Below, piece after piece: positions 12,641 to 36,556 of a stretch of DNA of 64,000 nucleotides. The stretch covers positions 16,120,001 through 16,184,000 of the forward strand of contig OZ320322.1 in the NCBI GenBank assembly GCA_976226885.1, in the 5' to 3' direction. Both the position numbers and the translations under genes were made by a program. The DNA is from Iphione sp. A-MEVVRFRX5. Taxonomy: Eukaryota. Position 1 is the stretch's first letter. Each line of letters starts with the position of its first letter. Below the pieces are notes generated by a model, which ran no database searches, was not told the origin of the DNA, and worked only from the letters and a program-made list of their open reading frames with translations.

Positions 12641-13434
12641 CAAAATTACGTGGCATGAGACACGTGACCTGGCGTAAATTCTGCGTGAGCGATTGAGAAG
12701 CCTGTAGTTTGACCGAGATTTCGGTATATGGCGTGTCCAAATCAACAGGAAGAATGGACAATAGCGCGGGGAGCATACAACCTCCTGTTGCGTGGGTAGC
12801 TCCACCTACGCCTCGTATACCAAATAACCAAGCTAATTTTCCTCCGCAGCTTAATTTTCCCCGAAAAGTACTTTTTTAATTCACCGGTCAGCTGACCAAA
12901 AAAAGCACGGTGGACGGTGGATTTTAGCTGGCCATTCAAAGTAACAATGCTTGCTTTTATGAGCCTCAGCAGAATGAGACGGGAAAGTTTTGTAGAAACA
13001 AGTCAAATATTCGTTATCATTAATCCTTACTTCAGCAAACTTTGAGATAGATATTTTTTTCAATAGACAAGTCATGTCAGGTTTGCCTGCAGGTATCCAT
13101 TTACATTAACCTAGCAAACTTTAAGTCACTTCCCAAAGAATGCCGCGACAAATAAAATTTCCTTGAGTTTATGATAAAAACATTTCAGATAAACTTCAGC
13201 TTTTACCTTTTGTAGGAAATTATACCGTGGCAGAACCTCGGTATCTGTCGCCCCAGAAAAAAGGATAATCTCTTCAATCGGGACAGATTTTGTTCGAACT
13301 ACTTCGATTATCGATTGTAAACTTACCTTTCAGAACTGGGGGCACCCACTAAACGGGGACACCTTCGCTGGGAACCATGGGTGTTTCCAGCTCTGAAGTT
13401 TTACGGTAAATCCCAATGGTTCGATCCATCCCCC

Positions 13435-13770
13435 CATCAGCCAGTTGCCATGAAGTGGAAATATTCTAACAGTTAATCTGCGAGATGAATTATATTGAGA
13501 CGTATATCTATGGTGAGAATGAAAAGAAAAGGCTTGAAAATATACGATAATTGTGAAGTTAAAATGGACAGAGGCAAAAATCAAAATCTTTTGATATAAA
13601 AATGCATCTCCAGGGTTTGATCTTACATCCCGTCAGATAGTTGCCATGAGGTGAAAATATTCCAATAGTTAATCTGCAAGATGAATTATATTAATGTGTA
13701 TCCATGGTGAAAAAAAACGAAATTACCTTTAAATAGACGTTAATTGTAGTTTAAAATAGACACAAGTGAA
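13435..13770. repeat. Diverged tandem duplication, ~195-bp unit
   Basis: agttgccatga..aatatt..agttaatctgc.agatgaattatatt occurs at ~13441 and ~13638. Confidence 0.7.
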
Positions 13771-13864
13771 AATGACTATTTATTGATATCAACGTTCGTG
13801 TTTAGTATCAATGAGCCAGTGGCATTCATTAGATTTTTTCATGTTGGCACAGTTGAGATGCAAG

Positions 13865-14085
13865 GACAGGAGAGAGAGAGAGGGGGGAAGAGAGAGGGGG
13901 GGAGAGAGAAGACAGAGGAAAAGGAAGGGGAACAGAGAGAGAAGGGAAAGACAGGTGGAGAAAGAAAGGGAGAGGGTTCGATGGAGAGAGGGACAGAGAG
14001 AGGAGAGATAGATGGATAAAGAGACGGACAGGCAGAGGGACAGAGGAAGAGAGAGAGGAAGTGGACAGAGAGGGATAGAACCAGG
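13865..14085. repeat. GA-rich low-complexity tract
   Basis: Direct reading. Confidence 0.9.
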
Positions 14086-26935: not shown

Positions 26936-27189
26936 ATAGTCCAACCAACCAATCACATAAAAAACACTATCATACTTTTAATTCAACAACGGAGAAGCCC
27001 GTGTTGGGTGAAACTTGACCTCTACGTGAACTCTGAATCTGGCCTCACTCTCTTGGAGGAAAGTTTGATCACCGTGATGATATCAGTCTCACGTGGAGTT
27101 TGAGGCCCGAGCAACGACACCAACTCAACACAAAAAACATTCTTTACCCGCTCGGGCCCCTACTCACCACCCTGTGGAGGTCGGCTGTT

Positions 27190-28820
27190 CTACTCCTCCG
27201 TCCACATCACGTCAGTGTTGGTGCGACGCTGCTGAGGGGGGCGGGCCTCCAGGAGGTCCCACACAGTGGGGTCCTCCGTTCGTTGTTGGGCCCGCGCTGC
27301 TTGTGCCTCCCGCTCCCAGGTGTCGAAGGCCTCGCGCCTCGAGGCCGCCGTCGTCGCATAGGCCGGACGCGGGTCTTCGAGGAGGTTGGTCGCGGCTTCG
27401 ATCGATCGTTGTGCCAGCGGGTGACACGTTCGCGGTCGCCCCACTCGAGCCGGTCAGGGATCCGCATCCCTTCCAGCGCGAGGACCGGCCGCCTGACCAG
27501 GGGGTCGATGAGGTGCTGCGGCGATGCCTCCGACTCAGCCAGGGCCAGAACCCACGCCAAGGAGGAACTGGCGATGAAGCGAGAGGTTGGGCTCATCTCC
27601 ATCCAGCGGGGAGGGGGCCATTCCAGCCGCTGGGGAAGGCGTACCATAGTAGGAACCATGACGGCTCGCCGTATCGCCGGGTAGGGCGGCACTCGGCCGT
27701 CCAGAATTTCCCGGACTCGGCGGGACAGCAGGCCGAGCATGGGCGTGGTGAGTTCCTGTTCTGCCAGTCGTTGAAGGTGTCCTGGTGGGAGGGCTGCCTC
27801 CCGGGGCCGATCGCTTGACGGACCTCGAGAGGGTCCGGAGGCCTCCCAAGCCGTCAGGGTGTCAAGGAGGGCGGCCGGACTCCAGTCGGGGGTCGGAAGA
27901 GATGGCCCCCCTCGCAGTAAACTGGCGACTGACGTGGGCGTCCCTGGAGTGGCGCTGCTGCTTCGTCGTCCACCGCTGCCGGCTCTGGTTGACCCCCACG
28001 GGCCTCCGGTGACGGGAGATACACCCCGGCCCCAGGCATAGGGCGCTTGTGGTGCATCCCGGAGATACCCCCGCCCGGCAGGAGCTGGAGGCATGGGCGG
28101 AGTGCGGTCGCTCCCTACGCTGCCCTCCCCAGAGTCAGAGGGGGAAGCGGGACGTCCAACGGCGGCAGCGGCCGGTGAGGTGCGCCAGCGGGCTCGGCCA
28201 GAAGCATGGGGCGGCTGGGACTCCGGCGGGGGTGTGGACTCCATTGCCGATGAAGAAGATGGTCTGAGAGGCCCGGGTGGGGGCCTGGCTGCCGGTGTCC
28301 GAGGTGCACCGTGCCCAGGCAGAATAGAAGACGGTTGCCGCCCCCAGACGACGCGCCGCTCGGGGAGGCTCGGCCAACGCTCTAGGATCTCATCTACTTC
28401 CGCCGGACCCATGAAGGCGCCCAGAGTGGCGGAGAGCTGCCGGGCTCGGATGATGACGTCGGCCCGGTTGTCATCGGGCACGAAAAGTTCCCCCGCGTCA
28501 CCCTGTTGATGGTCGAAAAGGCTGCGGTAGGCGGGGGCCGTCAGTCCCCTCTCCATGACCCACGGATGGCGCCGCCGCAAATGGGCGAGCCAGGTGCCAG
28601 GCTCACCTAGGACGCTGGGACAGAAGAGGCAGTCCATCTGTCGGTGTCGGCGGCCCCCATGCTGCTCCTTCTGATGACCCTCCAAGGACTCCCCCGCCCA
28701 ATACACCCGGTGGGGTGTGCAGAGCTCACACCAAGCTGTACCAGGGGGCAGGGGTTCTCCCTCCTCCACCTGGGGTGCCGGGGGACGTGCCACTTTCTGC
28801 CGGGGCATGCCGCTTGCCAT
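27190..28820 (-). CDS. Gypsy accessory ORF, ~540 aa: two N-terminal C2H2-like zinc fingers, Pro/Ser-rich middle, duplicated M(V)R[LI]PxRLEW motif
   Basis: ORF 28820-27207 contains CELC-x14-H-x4-H and CLFC-x12-H-x4-H. A probable single-base frameshift near 27440 would instead end the protein in the 27444-27190 frame (..LAQRSIEAATNLLEDP..WTEE*). Function unknown. Confidence 0.7.
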
Positions 28821-28845
28821 AGAGAGAGAGGGCCAGACAGGGTGG

Positions 28846-29766
28846 TTGTGGAACCACAGGCTCGTTGACAGTACAGGTTAGGTCACGACGTGGGGCCACA
28901 GACTACAACACACAGAGATGATAGTCGGTGCTATCTAACAGTCAGCGACAGACAATCACTGTGGCACCACAGACAACAAGCTGACTGCACTTGGGGTGGC
29001 CACTCAGCCGCCCTAAGCTGTCATCAGAGATGGAGGTGCGAGGTGCGGTGAGGCCACAGCCCGGTGATGGCGACTGCCGCTCCTCGCCCAGTCACTCGAT
29101 CCTTCTGCAGCGTCTGCCCGAAACCGTGGTCTGTGGTTCCACGCTCACGATCAGCTTCCTGTTTCTCAATGCCCCGTTGGATGTGTCCACACAGAAAGAC
29201 TTATTTTTGGCACTGTCCCCCGGCGTCCCCGCTGTTCTTCTCAGCCTCCTCTCTCCCTCACGTGGCCAGCTGTGGTGCCACGGGCCGCCATTGATCACGT
29301 CTCGCAAGACCACGGGTTCTCTCGCGCCCCGCGAGATCCCGCGTCTCGCGCCCGTATCTCATCTGCGGGCCCACAGCGCAACTGCTTACTCTACGACTGC
29401 TGAAGATTCATTCTTTTTGTACTATAGGGGACTGGCAGGGATAGGACAAAAACTGTGCTACACCACTCTATTTTCCTTCCTTCGGCTGTGGCACCATAGG
29501 CACTTTCGCTGAGTTCTCCCTCTAGAGGGCGACACCTCCTCCCCGCCTGTGGTTCCACAGCCCGTTCACCTGATACGTTGTATCGGCTATTTCCCCTGAT
29601 TCCACCAATCACTCGTTATGTTAGATTTCTGTGGCACCACAGTATGAGTGGTTACCCTCTCAGCCAATCACTCGAATGCCAATGATATCTGTGGCACCAC
29701 ATACACGATCTTCGCTGCCCGCCGTAGCCAATCATCTTGGCCCACTGCACCCCCCCCAAATATAAA
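28846..29766. promoter_or_regulatory. Putative internal (possibly bidirectional) promoter of the Gypsy accessory region
   Basis: Ten CTGTGG-N2-CCACAG-like palindromes (28846-29702), TCTCGCG/CGCGAGA cluster (29300-29350), CCAAT at 29605, 29664, 29679 and 29728, TATAAA at 29761. Confidence 0.6.
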
Positions 29767-30002
29767 TGAGATGGGCTATAGCCAGCCTGCTTCATCTGGA
29801 CTCTTGCTGCACCCCACCAGGCTCCTCTATCCTTCCAGCTACCCCTTCCAGCTACCCCAGTTCTACAGGTACCCGTCTTGTGTAGGAATGGCAACTGCTT
29901 AACATCTTTGAACTAGCTGAACCGGAGACAAATCATAGTTTTTTTTTGTTTTTGTTTTTTTTTTTTTAACGGTTTTCTCCCTTTTTCAGCCTAAACCCAG
30001 CC

Positions 30003-30872
30003 ATGACCAATCAAGGGACCGCGTTTGGGCACCTTCCTGCTGCGGTTCTTTGGCCTTATCGCGTGTGAGTGTTTGGATAACTCTTCCTCTACTTCCACTC
30101 GTTCTAAGTGTTATCCAACATCGCCTCTTCCTGAAGTTTAGTGTCAGCCAGATCCGTCTTCATTTTTCCTGCCTATTTTCTCTTCCGTAGGCTCCGCTAT
30201 CGGCCCACCCTGCCCGGGTCAACCCCCTCCGGCATGAACATTCACACAGAAGGGCCGGTGGTACGAGTTTTCGGCACCCATGAGATCATAAATGCCCCCT
30301 TCATCTTGCCTGTTCCGGGCTGTCTGGTCTTCCTTGGACCGCTTCACGTGATTGACCTGGTGGTACGCCCCGTCGCCCCTCCTGGCTCAGCGTGACCCCC
30401 ACCAACGATGCCCGCCCCATCAGACTGGGCCACTTGCTACACCACCCCGGTGCCCCCACCGGCCTCTCCCTCCTCCAGTGCTTCCGGGTATGGCACCGAC
30501 AGCCCTTCATCCCTTACTAGCAGTCGTCTGGACCCCTGGGGGTCCCACCAGGACCTTTCCGCGATGGGCGCCTCACCACCCCCGGCAGACGGATCGGGTC
30601 ACCCCTCTCCGAGCCCACGGCCATCACCCACCCCATCGGGAGAAGACTCTGTACCGCCTCCGTCTCCGGCCGTCACGAGGTCAGAATGCACTACCCCTGA
30701 GACAGGCGATGGCATCTCCCGCAGCTCCTCACCCCTGGGGACTTCCCCTCCGGGAGGCCACGTGCCCTTCGCGGTGATTTCGACTCCCGCCCTGGCAGCC
30801 TGGTATCGTCAGCTTCGTTGGGGTGACGCCCCCTTCTGCCCTATCCTGGTATCTTCCTCCGATGAGGAATAG
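30003..30872 (+). pseudogene. Antisense accessory gene of the Gypsy element (Pro/Ser-rich, ~260 aa if spliced; one in-frame TGA)
   Basis: TATA 29761; candidate donor CAG|GTACC 29869; long pyrimidine tract with acceptor AG at 29988-89; gccATG 30003; candidate intron 30065-30151; frames 30141-30395 and 30408-30872 are the same frame separated by one TGA; AATAAA 30939. Confidence 0.5.
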
Positions 30873-31354
30873 GACCTTGATCGGTAACTATACTCCCCAT
30901 GCTAAGTACTCTGTAGCTGCGTGGCCGACATACCTTGAAATAAATTTCAACTAACTAATTTGTCCCCCGTGTTCATTCTATGTTCCATTCACTCTCAGAC
31001 TTAATTATAAACACCCTTCTCGTCATCCCGCAGCAGCGACCAGAGGACATAACCCGACCAGGTTCTAATTCCTTCGCCCTGGTCCGGGTTGGCTCCACCC
31101 CTGACAGTGTGCCGGCTCGCCCAGAGGACAAAGCCTGGTCAGACCTCCGTCTCCTTCTGGCCCAGGCCGGCTCCACCGTCAGTTCCACCTTCGTGGTCTG
31201 TCAACTTCCCAGCTACCAGCGGCCTACACTGCAAGCGGCCATAGTGCTGCCCTCCCTAACCGGGAGCTTTCTTCGCACACTATGGCTCGCCTTCCGACAA
31301 CATCTCCGGAGCTGCCTAGGTCCCCCCCTGGAGGACGTCCCCCCACTTCTCCCC

Positions 31355-31630
31355 CTAGAACTTTTGGGTACCGCACCCGGGGATGTCCAGCCTCCCCCTC
31401 TGGAGCTTTTGGGTCCCGCACCCGAGGATGTCCAGCCTCCCCCCTCTGGAGCTTTTGGGTCCCACACCCGAGGATGTCCAGCCTCCCCCCTCTGGAGCTT
31501 TTGGGTCCCAGACCCGAGGATGTCCAGCCTCCCCCCTCTGGAGCTTTTGGGTGCCACACCCGAGGATGTCCAGCCTCCCCCTCTGGAGCTATTGGGTCCC
31601 GCACCCGGGGATGTCCAGCCTCCCCTCCCT
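31355..31630. repeat. 45/46-bp tandem repeat (~6 copies) in the pol C-terminal tail
   Basis: Unit tctggagcttttgggtcccgcacccgaggatgtccagcctccccc(c); minus-strand reading EAGHPRVRDPKAPEG. Confidence 0.9.
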
Positions 31631-31699
31631 GGAGCTCTCTGCTCTCCCTAGTCCGACCTCCAATGGAAGATTTTTATCCTATCTTTTGCTACGAGCTCC

Positions 31700-34600
31700 C
31701 TTCCTTATTCGCTCGCCGCCGCCATGACTTGATCCAACGAGGTATCTCCCCTCGATACAGTCATAGGCGATTCCGGTGCACCACCTTGGGGCGAGCCCGG
31801 GCTGCCCGTTGGACCACCAATCGCTCTGGGTCCAGTACCTTAGTAACGAGCCATGGACCCGTCCAGGGCAAGTATACTTTAGGGCTCTTCCCTCTGGGTG
31901 GTTGAGCTTCGTGTAACCACACCGCGTTCCCTTCCTGTAGGGGTTCCCCTTTTGCCTGGCGATCGTATCCTCTAGCCTGCGTCCGTGCAGCCTTTAACAA
32001 GTGCTCCCGGACCGTCTGGTAAGCCCTCTTCAGCTGACGTTGAAGGCGCTGCACCCACTCTGGCATAGTCACCTGTTCCTTCCCCTCCCACTCACTAAGA
32101 GGGAGGCCATCCATCGCATGTGCTGGCAGGACCACCTCCCGACCGAACATCAGGAAGTTGGGTGTGAAGCCAGTACTGGCTTGGGGGGAAGCTCGGTAGG
32201 CCATCATAAGCAGTGGGAGTGCTTCATCCCAGTCGTCGCCGGTATCATAGCAGTGGGCTTTAATCATTTTCGATAAATCCGTCCCCCTGGGGGTGTCTAG
32301 GGGTCGTCTTGGTTCACTGCACCCACTCTGGCATAGTCACCTGTTCCTCTGTTGGTTCCTCTGTCGCTGTGGAGCTCCATGAAGCATCCATAACGAGAGA
32401 CCAAATCCTCCACTAGTACTTGTGCTATCCGGGTTGCCCTCTGGTCAGGAAGTGGGAAGGCCTCTAGCCATTTAGTAAAGTGGTCCCCCACCATCAAGAT
32501 ATAACAATTGCCCCGCTTGGTATGGGGGAACGGACCGGCCACGTCCATGGACCATCTCTCCATTGGCTTCCCGGACACATAAGTGCGCAGCGCCGTCTGT
32601 GGACGGAAGGGATTTACTGTCAGGAGAGCACAGTGACATTTCGCACAGAAATTTTGTATATCTTGTTGCATCCCGGGCCAGTAATACGCCAAGGACACCA
32701 GGAAAGTGGTGCGGTCTACCCCTAAGTGGCTACCCATCCGGCCTTGGTGGATTTCCTTGATAGCCTTGACTCGTCGCTGCGCAGGGAGTACCAGCTGCAG
32801 GCGGGTTCTTGAGGCTTCGAGCTCATGCCACTGCCGGTATAGCAGCCCCTCTTGTACCACCAGACGGTCCCACTGCTGCCATAGTTTCTTGGCCGCCCTC
32901 GACAAGGGGGAAATGTCCTCCCACTCTGGCCTACCAGATGTATCCTCGTTCAGCGTCAGGATAGGTCCAATATCTGGGTCGTCCAGCTGCGCACCCCAAA
33001 GGGCCCGATCTGCCGCCCCCTGAGTGCGGCCTCGGGTGACAACTCGTACCTCCACCCTATGCTCCTGCTTGCACTGTTTACAAGGCATTCAGGATAGAGC
33101 ATCCGCGTTACCATGCAGGCGCCCTGGTCGGTGCTGAAGGTGGAGGTGATATTGGCCGATTCTCTCCAGCCATCGAGCTAACTGCCCCTCAGGGTCCCGG
33201 ATACAGCTCAACCAGCTAACCGCCCCGTTGTCCGTCCGCACCGTGATCTCCTGCCCGTATATGAAAAAATGAAAATGTTTCAAAGCAGCTACCACCGCAA
33301 GCAGCTCCCTCCGCATCACACAATACCTCCGTTCCGGTGACGTGAGACTGCGGCTAAAGTACGCGAGGACTACTTCCTGGCCTCCCTGCTCTTGGGAAAG
33401 CACGGCTCCTAGCCCCACATTGCTGGCATCTGTGTCCAAATAAAAACGTCCCTTAGGCATCGGGTAGCCCAGCACGGGGCTGGCCTGCAATGCCCGTTTC
33501 AAAGATTCGAAGGCCTCCTCTTCTTCGGGGCCCCAATAAAACCGGGTCCGGGGGCTAGTCAGCCGGTGTAGGGGTGCTGCTAGATCGGCGAAATGAGCCA
33601 CCAGACGGCAGTAGTAGGAACAAAGTCCCAGAAAGGCTCTTACGTCGGTAGTGGAGGTCGGCCTCGGCCATTCCTGGATACACTGCACCTTCCCGGGATC
33701 CGCTGAAATTCCCCGATAGGACACCCGATGCCCCAGGAAAGGAACCTCCTCAAGGAACAAACGGCATTTAGCCGGTTTCAATTTTAAGCCAGCAGCCTCA
33801 ATTCGAGAGAGCACCTGATCCAACCGGGCTAGTGTCTCCCCAAAATCCCGCCCGAATACCAATACGTCGTCCAGATAGACTAGGCATTGCTCCCAGGTCA
33901 GTCCCCTGAGCACTGTGTCCATTAAGTGCTCAAACGTAGCAGGAGCGTTGACCAACCCAAATGGCATCACTGTAAACTCATACAACCCAGAGGATGTGGT
34001 GAAGGCCGTCTTTTCCTGGTCCCGCGGATCCATCTTAACCTGCCAATAGCCCGATGCTAAGTCTAACGAGCAAAAGTACCGAGCTCCCGCCAGTGCGCTT
34101 AACGAATCATCAACTCGGGGTAGGGGATACGCGTCAACCTTCGTCTGTTGGTTTAGTTTCCGGTAATCGACACAGAAACGAGTAGTTCCATCCTTCTTGC
34201 GTACCATGACTACGGGACTTGCCCAGGGGCTCTAGCTCTCGACAATGACCCCAGCCTCTGCCATTTCCCTTACTAGTTGCTGCTCTTCCTGTCTTCTTGA
34301 CAGGGGCAGGCGCCGAGGTTGCTGTTTAATGGGACCTGACTCCCCCGTGCAAATACAATGTTGCACCATGTCCGTACAACCCAAGTCACCTTTGTGTTGT
34401 GCAAAGGCCCCCCCTGTGCCGTTCTAACACCACCCACAGCTCTCCTTGTTCCCCTTCAGTGAGATGAACTGTCTTAGTGGCCATCAACTCATCTATTACG
34501 GTCCCTGTCCCCACCTTTGTGGTAGCCACTTTCAGGGGGTGGTCCTGGAGGCAGTCAGTAACCTCCTCCCTCTGCACTGGCGAGCCAAGGGCTAGAGACG

Positions 34601-35150
34601 TCCCCTGTTGGATCAACAGTTCCCTCTCCCCAGTGTTCCACACGGGCAGCACCTGGCTTACAACGCAACGCACTTCTACCACCCCTTGCAATAACCGACC
34701 CTCCTCTAAGCCCTCTACCAAGAATGGGCCCTCTCCACTGGGAGACACTGGGATCCCCACCCCTTCCCCAGGGGGAACCGTAATATCGGAGGCTGCCCTC
34801 AGTACCTTAACTCCCCTGGTCTGTTCCTTCCCCCTAGGGGTCCCTCCAAACAAAACCTCACCCTGTGACAAGTCAATGACAGTGCCATGCTGGGTCAAGA
34901 AATCTGCCCTCAATATCCCATCCCCTTCTATCTCTGCTAACAGGAAGTGGTGTTTGAATTCCTTTCCAGCAATCCCTACCTGCACCTCCTCTCTCCCTAC
35001 CGTTGGCAGGATATGGCCCCCTACCCCCATAACCTTTACAGCAGCCCTCTTAACAACTGGGCCAGGGACCACACAGGATATTCATAATGGAAACTTCAGC
35101 ACCCGTATCAATAAGCAGTAGGAGTGTCCTCCCACCACAGCTTACCTTGA
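31700..35150 (-). pseudogene. pol: Gypsy pol (protease, reverse transcriptase, RNase H, integrase), disrupted
   Basis: IDTGAEVS at ~35110; RFCVDYRKLN, DLASGYWQ, MPFGLVNAPATF, YLDD (~33870); TDASNVGLGAVL, ELLAVV, DALS; integrase H..H..C..C, WSMDVAGP, LHSDRGTN, GDAVWL-like GNAVWL and PWTGPW. Multiple stops and frameshifts. A low-complexity tail may continue to ~30970. Confidence 0.95.
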
Positions 35151-35216
35151 GATGTGGTCCCTGGCCGTATTCCATTATCACCTCCCGGTGGACAGATGCA
35201 GTCAGTGTCCCCTGGC

Positions 35217-36067
35217 CTACTGAGCCGACTGCTGTGTGTTTTCAGACGGTTTAGGCCCTGTAGTGTTCGATGCTTGCTGTGGGGCTTTCGGGCAATCTCT
35301 CTTCCAGTGACCCGGTTGCTTGCAGAGGAAACACAAATTGTCCCTGGGCCAAGACCTCTGAGGTTGCATTTCCTCCTGTAGTTTGGCAAACTCCTGCATT
35401 AGGACTTCCACCATGTCCTTGGGTGCTGTGCTGTTAGAATCCTTGTTGCCACTTGCTTGAACGCCGGGAACCGTTCTTGGATCTCCACTACCTGTAGTGC
35501 AGCCTCCATGGTCTTGCATTGGGCTTCTAAACATTTCAAATGCAGGTCATCAGGGAGTGCCAGTTGGAAGGCCGACACTGCTGCTAACTCTCGCGTTTCT
35601 GCACTCACATCGGGGTACGTGGTGCGTACAAGTCATCGGACTTTGTCAGCAAACCCCTTGGCATCCTCCCCTTTCTATCTGCGGATCGTGGACAGGTCTT
35701 GCATAGCCGTCACTCGATTACGTCGACGTCCAAACCGCTTTTCCAAGGCGGCTACCCTGGACTCAAAGTCAGCCTTGTCCTCTGATGGGAGGTCTCCAAA
35801 GTACATTCGGGCGGTGCCAGTCAACGACAGAGCCAGTGCTGAAGCTCTTGTGTTCGGACTCCACTTGCATGCATCTGCCCATTCGACAAACTGGACAATC
35901 CAGCTGTCCCAGTCGACTACGCTGCCATCGAATCATTCAGGTTTCATGGCATTGGTGCGCAGTGGCTCCTCTGGGGCTAGCACGTAAGGTTCAGCTTCTT
36001 CTTCATCGTCCGCATCCGGTACGCGTAGCTGTACCTCGTCGTCAACTGCCACAAACTTGGTAGCCAT
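35217..36067 (-). pseudogene. gag: Gypsy gag, disrupted
   Basis: ATG at 36067, 13 nt after the PBS; KPE*FDGSVVDWDSWIVQF..ALSLTGTARMYF..ALEKRFG; zinc knuckle CFLCKQPGHWKRDC at 35333-35292; three stops and one frameshift. Confidence 0.9.
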
Positions 36068-36079
36068 GATGTACAGTGG

Positions 36080-36097
36080 ATCCCACTTCTGACACCA
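36080..36097 (-). promoter_or_regulatory. Primer binding site TGGTGTCAGAAGTGGGAT (tRNA-Leu)
   Basis: Starts 1 nt from the 5' LTR; complementary to the 3' end of metazoan tRNA-Leu(CAG) (..ATCCCACTTCTGACA-CCA), from memory. Confidence 0.9.
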
Positions 36098-36098
36098 G

Positions 36099-36556
36099 TG
36101 TAGTTTCTACTTGGGTTCAATAAAGAACTGACAACTCTGAGTCCTGATTCCAAACTGTCTTTATTTATATCTTTTCCCCAATCAAGGCACTAGCCAATCA
36201 TCCGTCAGTATCAGAGTAAGAGAATACATTGTTACCTCCTTTAACAGTCCTTTCAACTAACCCACCAATCAGGAGAGGGCAAAGTATCACCTTTGGGCTG
36301 TGGGACCACAGCCGAGTGCTGCCGATCCAATCACAAGAGAGCTTTGAGACTCCAGGGTAGTTTGTTTTAAATCCAGGGGTGGCTGTGGTACCACAGCGAC
36401 CCTTAGTGCATGTGCACCGAGTCCAGTACTCCTGCACTTACTTCGTATAGCCAGTGCATCCCGACTGTGGCACCACACACTTCTGCGCACAGGGCGTGCA
36501 TCCGTACCTCCACCTGTGGCACCACAGCTCAAGGCCGGCTCCTGCATACCACTACA
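36099..36556 (-). repeat. 5' LTR (458 bp)
   Basis: TG..CA ends, adjacent PBS, followed by TSD ATAC. Confidence 0.97.

Follow-up and report, generated by a model that had tools for sequence, protein, structure and literature searches.

The window examined here, a 64,000-nucleotide stretch of the genome of Iphione sp. A-MEVVRFRX5 (contig OZ320322.1, positions 16,120,001 to 16,184,000; positions below are counted from its first letter), contains an open reading frame (ORF) for a protein with two C2H2-like zinc fingers. The window is animal genomic DNA of about 40% GC, with microsatellites and remnants of piggyBac elements and long interspersed nuclear elements (LINEs). Within it, a GC-rich block of about 10.5 kb (26025-36556, minus strand) is a Gypsy (Metaviridae) long terminal repeat (LTR) retrotransposon, and the finger ORF lies between the integrase and the 3' LTR of this element. 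An initial annotation, made from the sequence alone, had taken the ORF for a retrotransposon-borne accessory protein, and its position bears this out.

The ends and core genes of the element identify it. Its 5' LTR (458 bp, 36099-36556, minus strand) and 3' LTR (476 bp, 26025-26500, minus strand) are 98% identical, with 9 mismatches over 458 columns and one 18-bp indel, and have TG...CA ends. A primer-binding site (36080-36097, minus strand), which we take to be of the tRNA-Leu type, a polypurine tract (26501-26520, minus strand), and a 4-bp target-site duplication (ATAC) are all present; the same primer-binding site occurs in 8 of the 78 related loci described below. A broken gag (35217-36065, minus strand), found by its CCHC knuckle (Pfam zf-CCHC, E 2.7e-7) and by tblastn with the gag of one of these loci (L001), carries three stops and one frame change. 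The broken pol (31761-35081, minus strand), located by Pfam and tblastn, spans the protease region, reverse transcriptase (RT), RNase H, and integrase, with Pfam matches to RVT_1 (1e-33), RT_RNaseH_2 (4.7e-33), Integrase_H2C2, and rve. It is interrupted by stops at 34234 and 33091 and by frame changes near 32350-32270, at which an exact 32-bp duplication is found (32049-32080 and 32317-32348). The protease region gave no Pfam match and was placed by position alone; with it so placed, the order gag, protease, RT, RNase H, integrase fits Gypsy. Altogether, gag-pol has accumulated at least five stops and two frame changes, that is, at least seven breaks in about 4.3 kb. The closest RTs, from sources that include sea cucumber, spiders, and insects, are 55-63% identical.

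The accessory ORF (27207-28820, minus strand; 537 open codons) is real. An ORF of at least 460 codons appeared in 1 of 5,000 base shuffles. Its second ATG, at 28808, lies 4 nt after a weak AG and behind a pyrimidine tract. The two fingers that had been reported, CELC-x14-HQKEQH and CLFC-x12-HLRRRH, are indeed encoded on the minus strand (28566-28730), with CELC at amino acids (aa) 31-34 (28730-28719), HQKEQH at aa49-54, CLFC at aa64-67, and HLRRRH at aa80-85. Their ligand patterns are C-x2-C-x14-H-x4-H and C-x2-C-x12-H-x4-H; measured against C-x2-4-C-x12-H-x3-5-H, finger 2 is canonical and finger 1 deviates with its x14. Two C2H2 patterns occurred in none of 20,000 shuffles of aa1-150. Do other methods recognize these fingers? 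Pfam zf-C2H2_4 scored 13.4 bits, below the curated threshold of 27; the Atlas neighbors of the finger region were C2H2 clusters at 0.91-0.93; and weak PDB matches were to ZNF524 (E 0.07) and CTCF. These weak signals agree in pointing to a C2H2 assignment. Two AlphaFold models, computed from the single sequence only, had mean pLDDT values of 40 and 38, with a helix predicted across finger 2.

Classical DNA-binding C2H2 fingers carry Arg, Lys, Asn, His, or Gln at helix positions -1, +3, and +6 and have a basic net charge. The accessory fingers depart from this on both counts. At positions -1, +2, +3, and +6 they read A-E-S-G and E-G-T-A, leaving A/S/G and E/T/A at the three classical positions and no Arg or Lys at any of the four, and the net charge of the pair is +2 versus +3 to +9 in 10 comparison pairs. 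These contact positions argue against the proposal that the protein binds CTGTGGCACCACAG directly.

Beyond the fingers, the long Pro/Ser/Gly-rich linker of the initial annotation occupies aa151-345 (27786-28370, minus strand; 47% P+S+G) and has only 2 RS/SR dipeptides. The duplicated RxPxRLEW motif was also found, and the repeat is longer than claimed: two 21-residue copies (aa381-401 and aa440-460; 27441-27680, minus strand) end in R-x-P-x-R-L-E-W, with VRLPQRLEWPPPR at aa393-405 (27644-27606) and MRIPDRLEW at aa452-460 (27467-27441). None of 150 shuffles reached the score of this repeat. The repeats had no Pfam match, and the region around them (aa345-462) had no usable Atlas match. Between the end of the ORF and the polypurine tract, a separate 49-65-bp repeat is present in three copies (26726-26914).

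No Pfam family matched the accessory ORF above cut-off, and none of the gag, pol, or env families matched it, in keeping with the earlier view that it is none of these. We considered an Env-like ORF3 and rejected it: the 537-aa frame lacks N-glycosylation sequons and any hydrophobic segment, its highest Kyte-Doolittle value for a 19-mer being 1.05. Searches for homologues of the protein were negative within their scopes. Among 8,000 candidates scored against the whole ORF, none reached E<=0.01; among 207 candidates for aa22-150, drawn from proteins of 295-940 aa, none reached E<=1; and phmmer over 1.84 billion representatives gave none at E<=0.001.

The C terminus of the protein appears to have been altered. 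The initial annotation had supposed that one G was missing from a run near 27440 and that, once it was restored, the second RLEW would continue as RLEWGRPR, mirroring the first, into a better-coding tail. Because no stop interrupts the accessory frame between 28820 and 27207, a break must be deduced and is not visible. We applied a 3-periodic codon model trained on pol only, which identified the frame correctly in each of 73 overlapping pol blocks. It preferred the annotated frame over aa1-150 and aa331-460, and over the last 248 nt it favored an alternative frame by 18.6 log units. The 87-codon open stretch in that frame (27190-27453, minus strand) is probably the original C terminus; it has the composition of a folded domain, and the annotated tail is Arg/Pro-rich. 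Two results weaken the call: in the low-complexity linker the same model chose wrongly by up to 14 units, and open frames of 87 codons at this composition turned up in 940 of 5,000 shuffles. On balance, we consider a frame break near the 3' end of the ORF likely. Its exact site is a different matter: the position is flat across 27453-27330, with the best point at 27402 and the G run 3.7 units worse. Nor did the sequence after the second RLEW resemble that after the first in any of the three frames (p 0.43-0.56), and the mirrored RLEWGRPR was not upheld. A single lesion in 1.6 kb, which had been thought worthy of remark, is ordinary when set against the breaks in gag-pol.

Upstream of the accessory ORF lies an internal control region of about 1 kb (28847-29740), bounded on its other side by a second, probable accessory gene in head-to-head orientation. 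It contains 3 CCAATC boxes and 10 copies of the palindrome TGTGGNNCCACA, of which 5 are exact and 5 have a single mismatch. Exact TGTGGNNCCACA occurs 13 times inside the element and not once in the other 53 kb of the window; sites with one mismatch number five inside and two outside. Four palindromes lie in each LTR, accompanied in the 5' LTR by four CCAAT boxes, and ten in 28847-29690. In a simulation, 9 observed sites compared with a mean of 0.03 expected (maximum of 1 in 300 simulations). The spacer is 2 bp in 9 of 9 exact sites, with no site at any other spacer from 0 to 8. A perfect TGTGGT lies inside 11 of 14 palindrome sites, and the CCAATC boxes of the element, 14 of 14, share one orientation. 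This arrangement suggests that the same control motif serves the LTRs and the two head-to-head accessory genes.

The second of these genes lies on the plus strand, antisense to the element. Its coding part (30003-30872) opens with an ATG at 30003 in good context, has an intron (30065-30190) spliced in frame, and ends with a stop at 30872, giving about 247 codons with one internal stop at 30393; AATAAA follows at 30939. The stretch before it (29761-29989, plus strand) holds a TATA box (about 29761), a non-coding first exon, and a first intron (29869-29989) that has about 35% GC versus 57% in the flanking exons and a consensus donor and acceptor. Both introns are AT-rich with consensus ends. The gene had no Pfam match and no homologue among the related loci, and its codon statistics were equivocal. 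Because of these codon statistics and the lack of a homologue, we regard a spliced two-intron antisense gene at 29761-30945, head-to-head with the finger gene, as probable and no more. Farther along the plus strand, an ORF of 223 codons from its ATG (30980-31648), with an acceptor-like site at 31033, runs into a tandem array of six 46-bp copies (31361-31636) 3' of the integrase; it had no Pfam match and an equivocal codon signal.

Do other Gypsy elements have an ORF of this kind? An RT-alignment scan of a genome collection yielded 80 loci, on eukaryotic contigs in metagenome-assembled genome (MAG) records, of which 78 were analyzed (L003 and L005 were left out). A same-strand C2H2 ORF follows the integrase in 13 of the 54 loci with a mapped integrase end (L001, L002, L004, L006, L007, L009, L010, L014, L015, L033, L035, L051, and L057); for several of the remaining 41, the contig stops too soon after the integrase to judge. 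Many of the 13 are near-copies, and on the RT tree, which does not include L057, they form about four groups. Seven of them went into building the profile, and independent Pfam zf-C2H2 matches, mostly below cut-off, were obtained in all eight of these loci that were tested. In six, the ORF sits between the integrase and a matched 3' LTR. In L033 (7100-11248) and L051 (3523-5190), the reading frame of pol continues at its end into the C2H2 pair and long extensions. Elsewhere, the C2H2 ORF of L050 is doubtful, the finger pair of L021 falls outside the LTRs of that locus, and antisense pairs occur in L071, L062, and L063. We conclude that C2H2 ORFs placed after the integrase form a class that appears repeatedly among the Gypsy lineages of animals. 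This recurrence makes a one-off captured host exon, a possibility raised in the initial annotation, unlikely.

The window protein can be compared most closely with four members of this class. On a quick RT phylogeny of unclassified relatives, the window element falls in a 23-row clade (SH-aLRT 96) with L001, L002, L004, and L035, in all of which the gene is present; L031, L036, and 14 protein rows of the clade give no 3' context. The four relatives resemble the window in the position and strand of the ORF, in its two N-terminal fingers, and in its low-complexity linker, and L002 and L035 repeat the full layout of two fingers, linker, and C-terminal domain. The unusual x14 first finger is common to the window protein and L001, L002, and L004 only, and these three gave the top three of ten pairwise finger scores (61, 55, and 51; ligand-fixed shuffle p 0.001-0.0065). 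A TTTCAG acceptor stands 3-6 nt before the finger-gene ATG in all four relatives, an arrangement that the second ATG of the window ORF, with its pyrimidine tract and weak AG, resembles. The relatives differ in that the ORF starts 0.1-1.9 kb after the integrase, the fingers are basic, with finger 2 reading R-D-N-R at the contact positions, and an 80-aa C-terminal domain is shared by L001 (3-713), L002 (7245-7469), and L035 (5919-6152). That domain had no Pfam match and no PDB match better than E 0.6; the RLEW repeats were tried as its homologues and rejected. The linkers of L001 and L002 are RS-rich (21 and 32 RS/SR dipeptides), and those of L035 and L051 are acidic. Membership of the window protein in the post-integrase class is well supported by position and plan, and its orthology with the relatives' finger proteins is plausible.

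What might such a protein do? We infer, tentatively and as something a little short of probable, that the element owns an accessory regulator, a nuclear co-regulator that works with a palindrome array read by the host. The mRNA for the protein, either one of its own or a spliced one, would start in 28850-29800, and this control region would also drive the antisense spliced gene. A dimeric Runx-like host factor together with NF-Y would read the palindrome/CCAAT array in the LTRs and the control region, so that the LTR and the accessory genes would come on in the same cells. In the nucleus, the product may then help to regulate expression of the element that encodes it. Its divergent fingers would dock on a protein partner or chromatin and would not read G-rich DNA as the classical recognition code foresees; the disordered linker and RLEW repeats would recruit cofactors. 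In this copy, the original C terminus was probably lost after insertion, alongside the decay of gag-pol. Because the fingers lack basic base-contact residues, a Runx-like host protein is a likelier binder of the palindrome than the accessory protein, and this lack, together with the TGTGG core of Runx, is what leads us to favor a host-read array with a co-regulator over its rivals.

Several observations weigh against the co-regulator proposal. TGTGG is the host Runx core, and the Runx dimer site of the GM-CSF enhancer type is, in the part of the source available, an inverted TGYGG with a 4-bp spacer (PMC2952845); the core of our palindrome matches and its 2-bp spacer does not, and identity with the Runx dimer palindrome was rejected. 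No such array appeared in the LTR sequences examined from the relatives. In two elements of the same clade, L011 and L075, the LTR follows the integrase after about 270-330 nt, and there is no C2H2 gene. The finger similarity is also not exclusive: the L021 pair, a control from outside any LTR, reached p 0.007. Sequence similarity to the relatives is weak as well: a profile of L001, L002, and L004 gave E 0.11 with the N terminus alone (a broader profile, E 0.025), and with the whole ORF it returned nothing at E<=1. The relatives' C-terminal domain was not found in the window protein by hhalign (probability 0.1-0.2%) or by hmmsearch.

Perhaps, instead, the element encodes its own transactivator, like foamy-virus Tas, a dimer of which would bind CTGTGGNNCCACAG at the LTR and an internal promoter in positive feedback? 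The palindrome is confined to the element, is strict, has a fixed spacer, and stands in the LTRs as well as immediately upstream of the ORF, all of which fit, as does finger 2 of the relatives, since R-D-N-R at the contact positions is typical of DNA-binding fingers. However, the window fingers lack Arg and Lys at all contact positions and have the low net charge noted above, the G-rich TGTGG core suits host Runx, and the LTR sequence available for relatives with stronger fingers contains no array of repeated palindromes. Tas itself is described as acting on the LTR and an internal promoter in the portions of the reports at hand (PMC8670036, PMC4929722). We consider a Tas-like activator unlikely. 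A broader form of the idea, to which we give about as small a chance, is that a circuit like those of complex retroviruses evolved independently in a non-retroviral animal Gypsy lineage: a C2H2 factor made from an internal bidirectional promoter would bind a palindrome in that promoter and in the LTR, as Tas does, and be paired with a spliced antisense gene resembling HBZ. The factor would belong to a widespread class of Gypsy zinc-finger regulators so far undescribed.

The protein could alternatively act on RNA, exporting or protecting the unspliced genomic RNA as Rev or CERV would. RNA or protein could be the target of fingers that lack DNA-contact residues, the linkers of L001 and L002 are RS-rich, and the spliced-mRNA arrangement is like that of the CERV of Cer1, needed for genomic RNA export according to the available text (PMC10309623). 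However, with its few RS/SR dipeptides the window linker does not share this feature, nor do the acidic linkers of L035 and L051, and we rate this a rather slimmer prospect than a transactivator. Improbable, in our judgment, is a counter-defence or host-directed factor that blocks host silencing or alters host expression, perhaps together with the antisense product. C termini that diverge fast across lineages fit an arms race, and the antisense product has a VIDL and a hydrophobic-Ser-acidic C terminus, which we assume to be putative SUMO-interaction-like motifs; such short motifs are common by chance, however, and our searches found no homology to known anti-silencing proteins. To neutral cargo, in which a captured host zinc-finger fragment or merely GC-rich sequence has no function for the element, we assign a similarly low probability. 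The large database searches gave no homologue, a GC content of 65% favors long ORFs, and the break density is no lower than in gag-pol. Against this stand the repeated finding of such ORFs, in the same position and orientation, across several lineages, the x14 finger common to relatives, the pol-like 3-periodicity of aa1-150 and aa331-460, and the rarity of so long an ORF among shuffles (1 in 5,000).

How does the window element compare with known systems? Extra ORFs after pol are known in Gypsy/Metaviridae, among them plant additional ORFs (aORFs) and the bdelloid ORF3 (GDSL, DEDDy, and env-like), according to the passages available (PMC5408684, PMC6431247). Like the window ORF, these lie between pol and the 3' LTR, typically on a separate spliced message; unlike it, none in the passages describing them is a zinc-finger ORF, and the window has both a sense and a probable antisense gene. 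The plant Retand/Grande elements, as described in part of one source (PMC11963269), have a long region between pol and 3' LTR (2.9-6.6 kb, versus 5.3 kb in the window), tandem arrays, and antisense ORFs proposed as regulators. They differ in being confined to plants, in having a TRP28 domain, and in having no C2H2 sense ORF, and the passages on them mention neither zinc nor an intron. Foamy-virus Tas, in the sections at hand (PMC8670036, PMC4929722, PMC7828637), is encoded near the 3' LTR and has a second promoter sharing LTR response elements, as the window element would. It belongs to the Retroviridae, and transactivation and direct binding are demonstrated for Tas itself, the window protein being likened to it by description. 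Also by description, the protein is like CERV of Caenorhabditis elegans Cer1, a nuclear accessory protein of an animal Gypsy-type element that is made from a spliced mRNA and acts in RNA export (PMC10309623, in part). Additional ORFs are thus a known kind of gene, and in the parts available of seven papers (PMC13524379, PMC11963269, PMC5408684, PMC12440569, PMC6238403, PMC6431247, PMC10886601) the C2H2 type is not among them. Within the portions covered of the literature on retrotransposon accessory genes, no C2H2 accessory ORF is described for animal Gypsy; earlier annotation in Repbase or GyDB is quite possible.

Other features came to light in the window and the related loci. Outside the element, the window contains a broken piggyBac-like transposase (DDE_Tnp_1_7; 49241-51384, minus strand), with three piggyBac-like ORFs and one LINE-type ORF scanned with Pfam, a 288-bp satellite (41778-43453), a LINE endonuclease remnant (17316-18122), and a DUF3504 fragment (22581-22865). 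Of the 188 high-complexity ORFs that lie outside the element, 141 were scanned with Pfam, and none of them yielded a host gene above cut-off; Rfam and ARAGORN found nothing. Among the related loci, a histone H3-like ORF follows the integrase in L077 (9873-10496, inside the LTR pair; Pfam Histone, E 2e-30) and in L071 (5732-6481), which also carries an antisense C2H2 ORF. Accessory ORFs of about 1050 aa follow the integrase in L025 (6894-10067, sense), L062 (13570-16737, antisense), and L063 (6109-9255, antisense), with no Pfam match for the two scanned. L056 has a 714-aa ORF between integrase and LTR (12959-15100) that is env-like by eye. Public bacterial and archaeal MAG records often hold eukaryotic contigs with Gypsy elements, some of these contigs exceeding 1 Mb.

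The finger ORF of the window thus stands in a Gypsy accessory regulator class that is probably undescribed, the regulatory function being one that we infer. Silencing of retroelements by zinc-finger proteins of the host has been studied in depth. In the parts of the literature examined, no zinc-finger regulators turned up that retrotransposons themselves encode. Transposon self-regulation becomes testable here, through a class that spans several lineages of animal Gypsy, the probable antisense gene lying head-to-head with the finger gene, and a common control motif, and these features suggest that elements of this kind help control their own expression. If that is true, many "hypothetical" C2H2 genes in invertebrate genomes would be element cargo.
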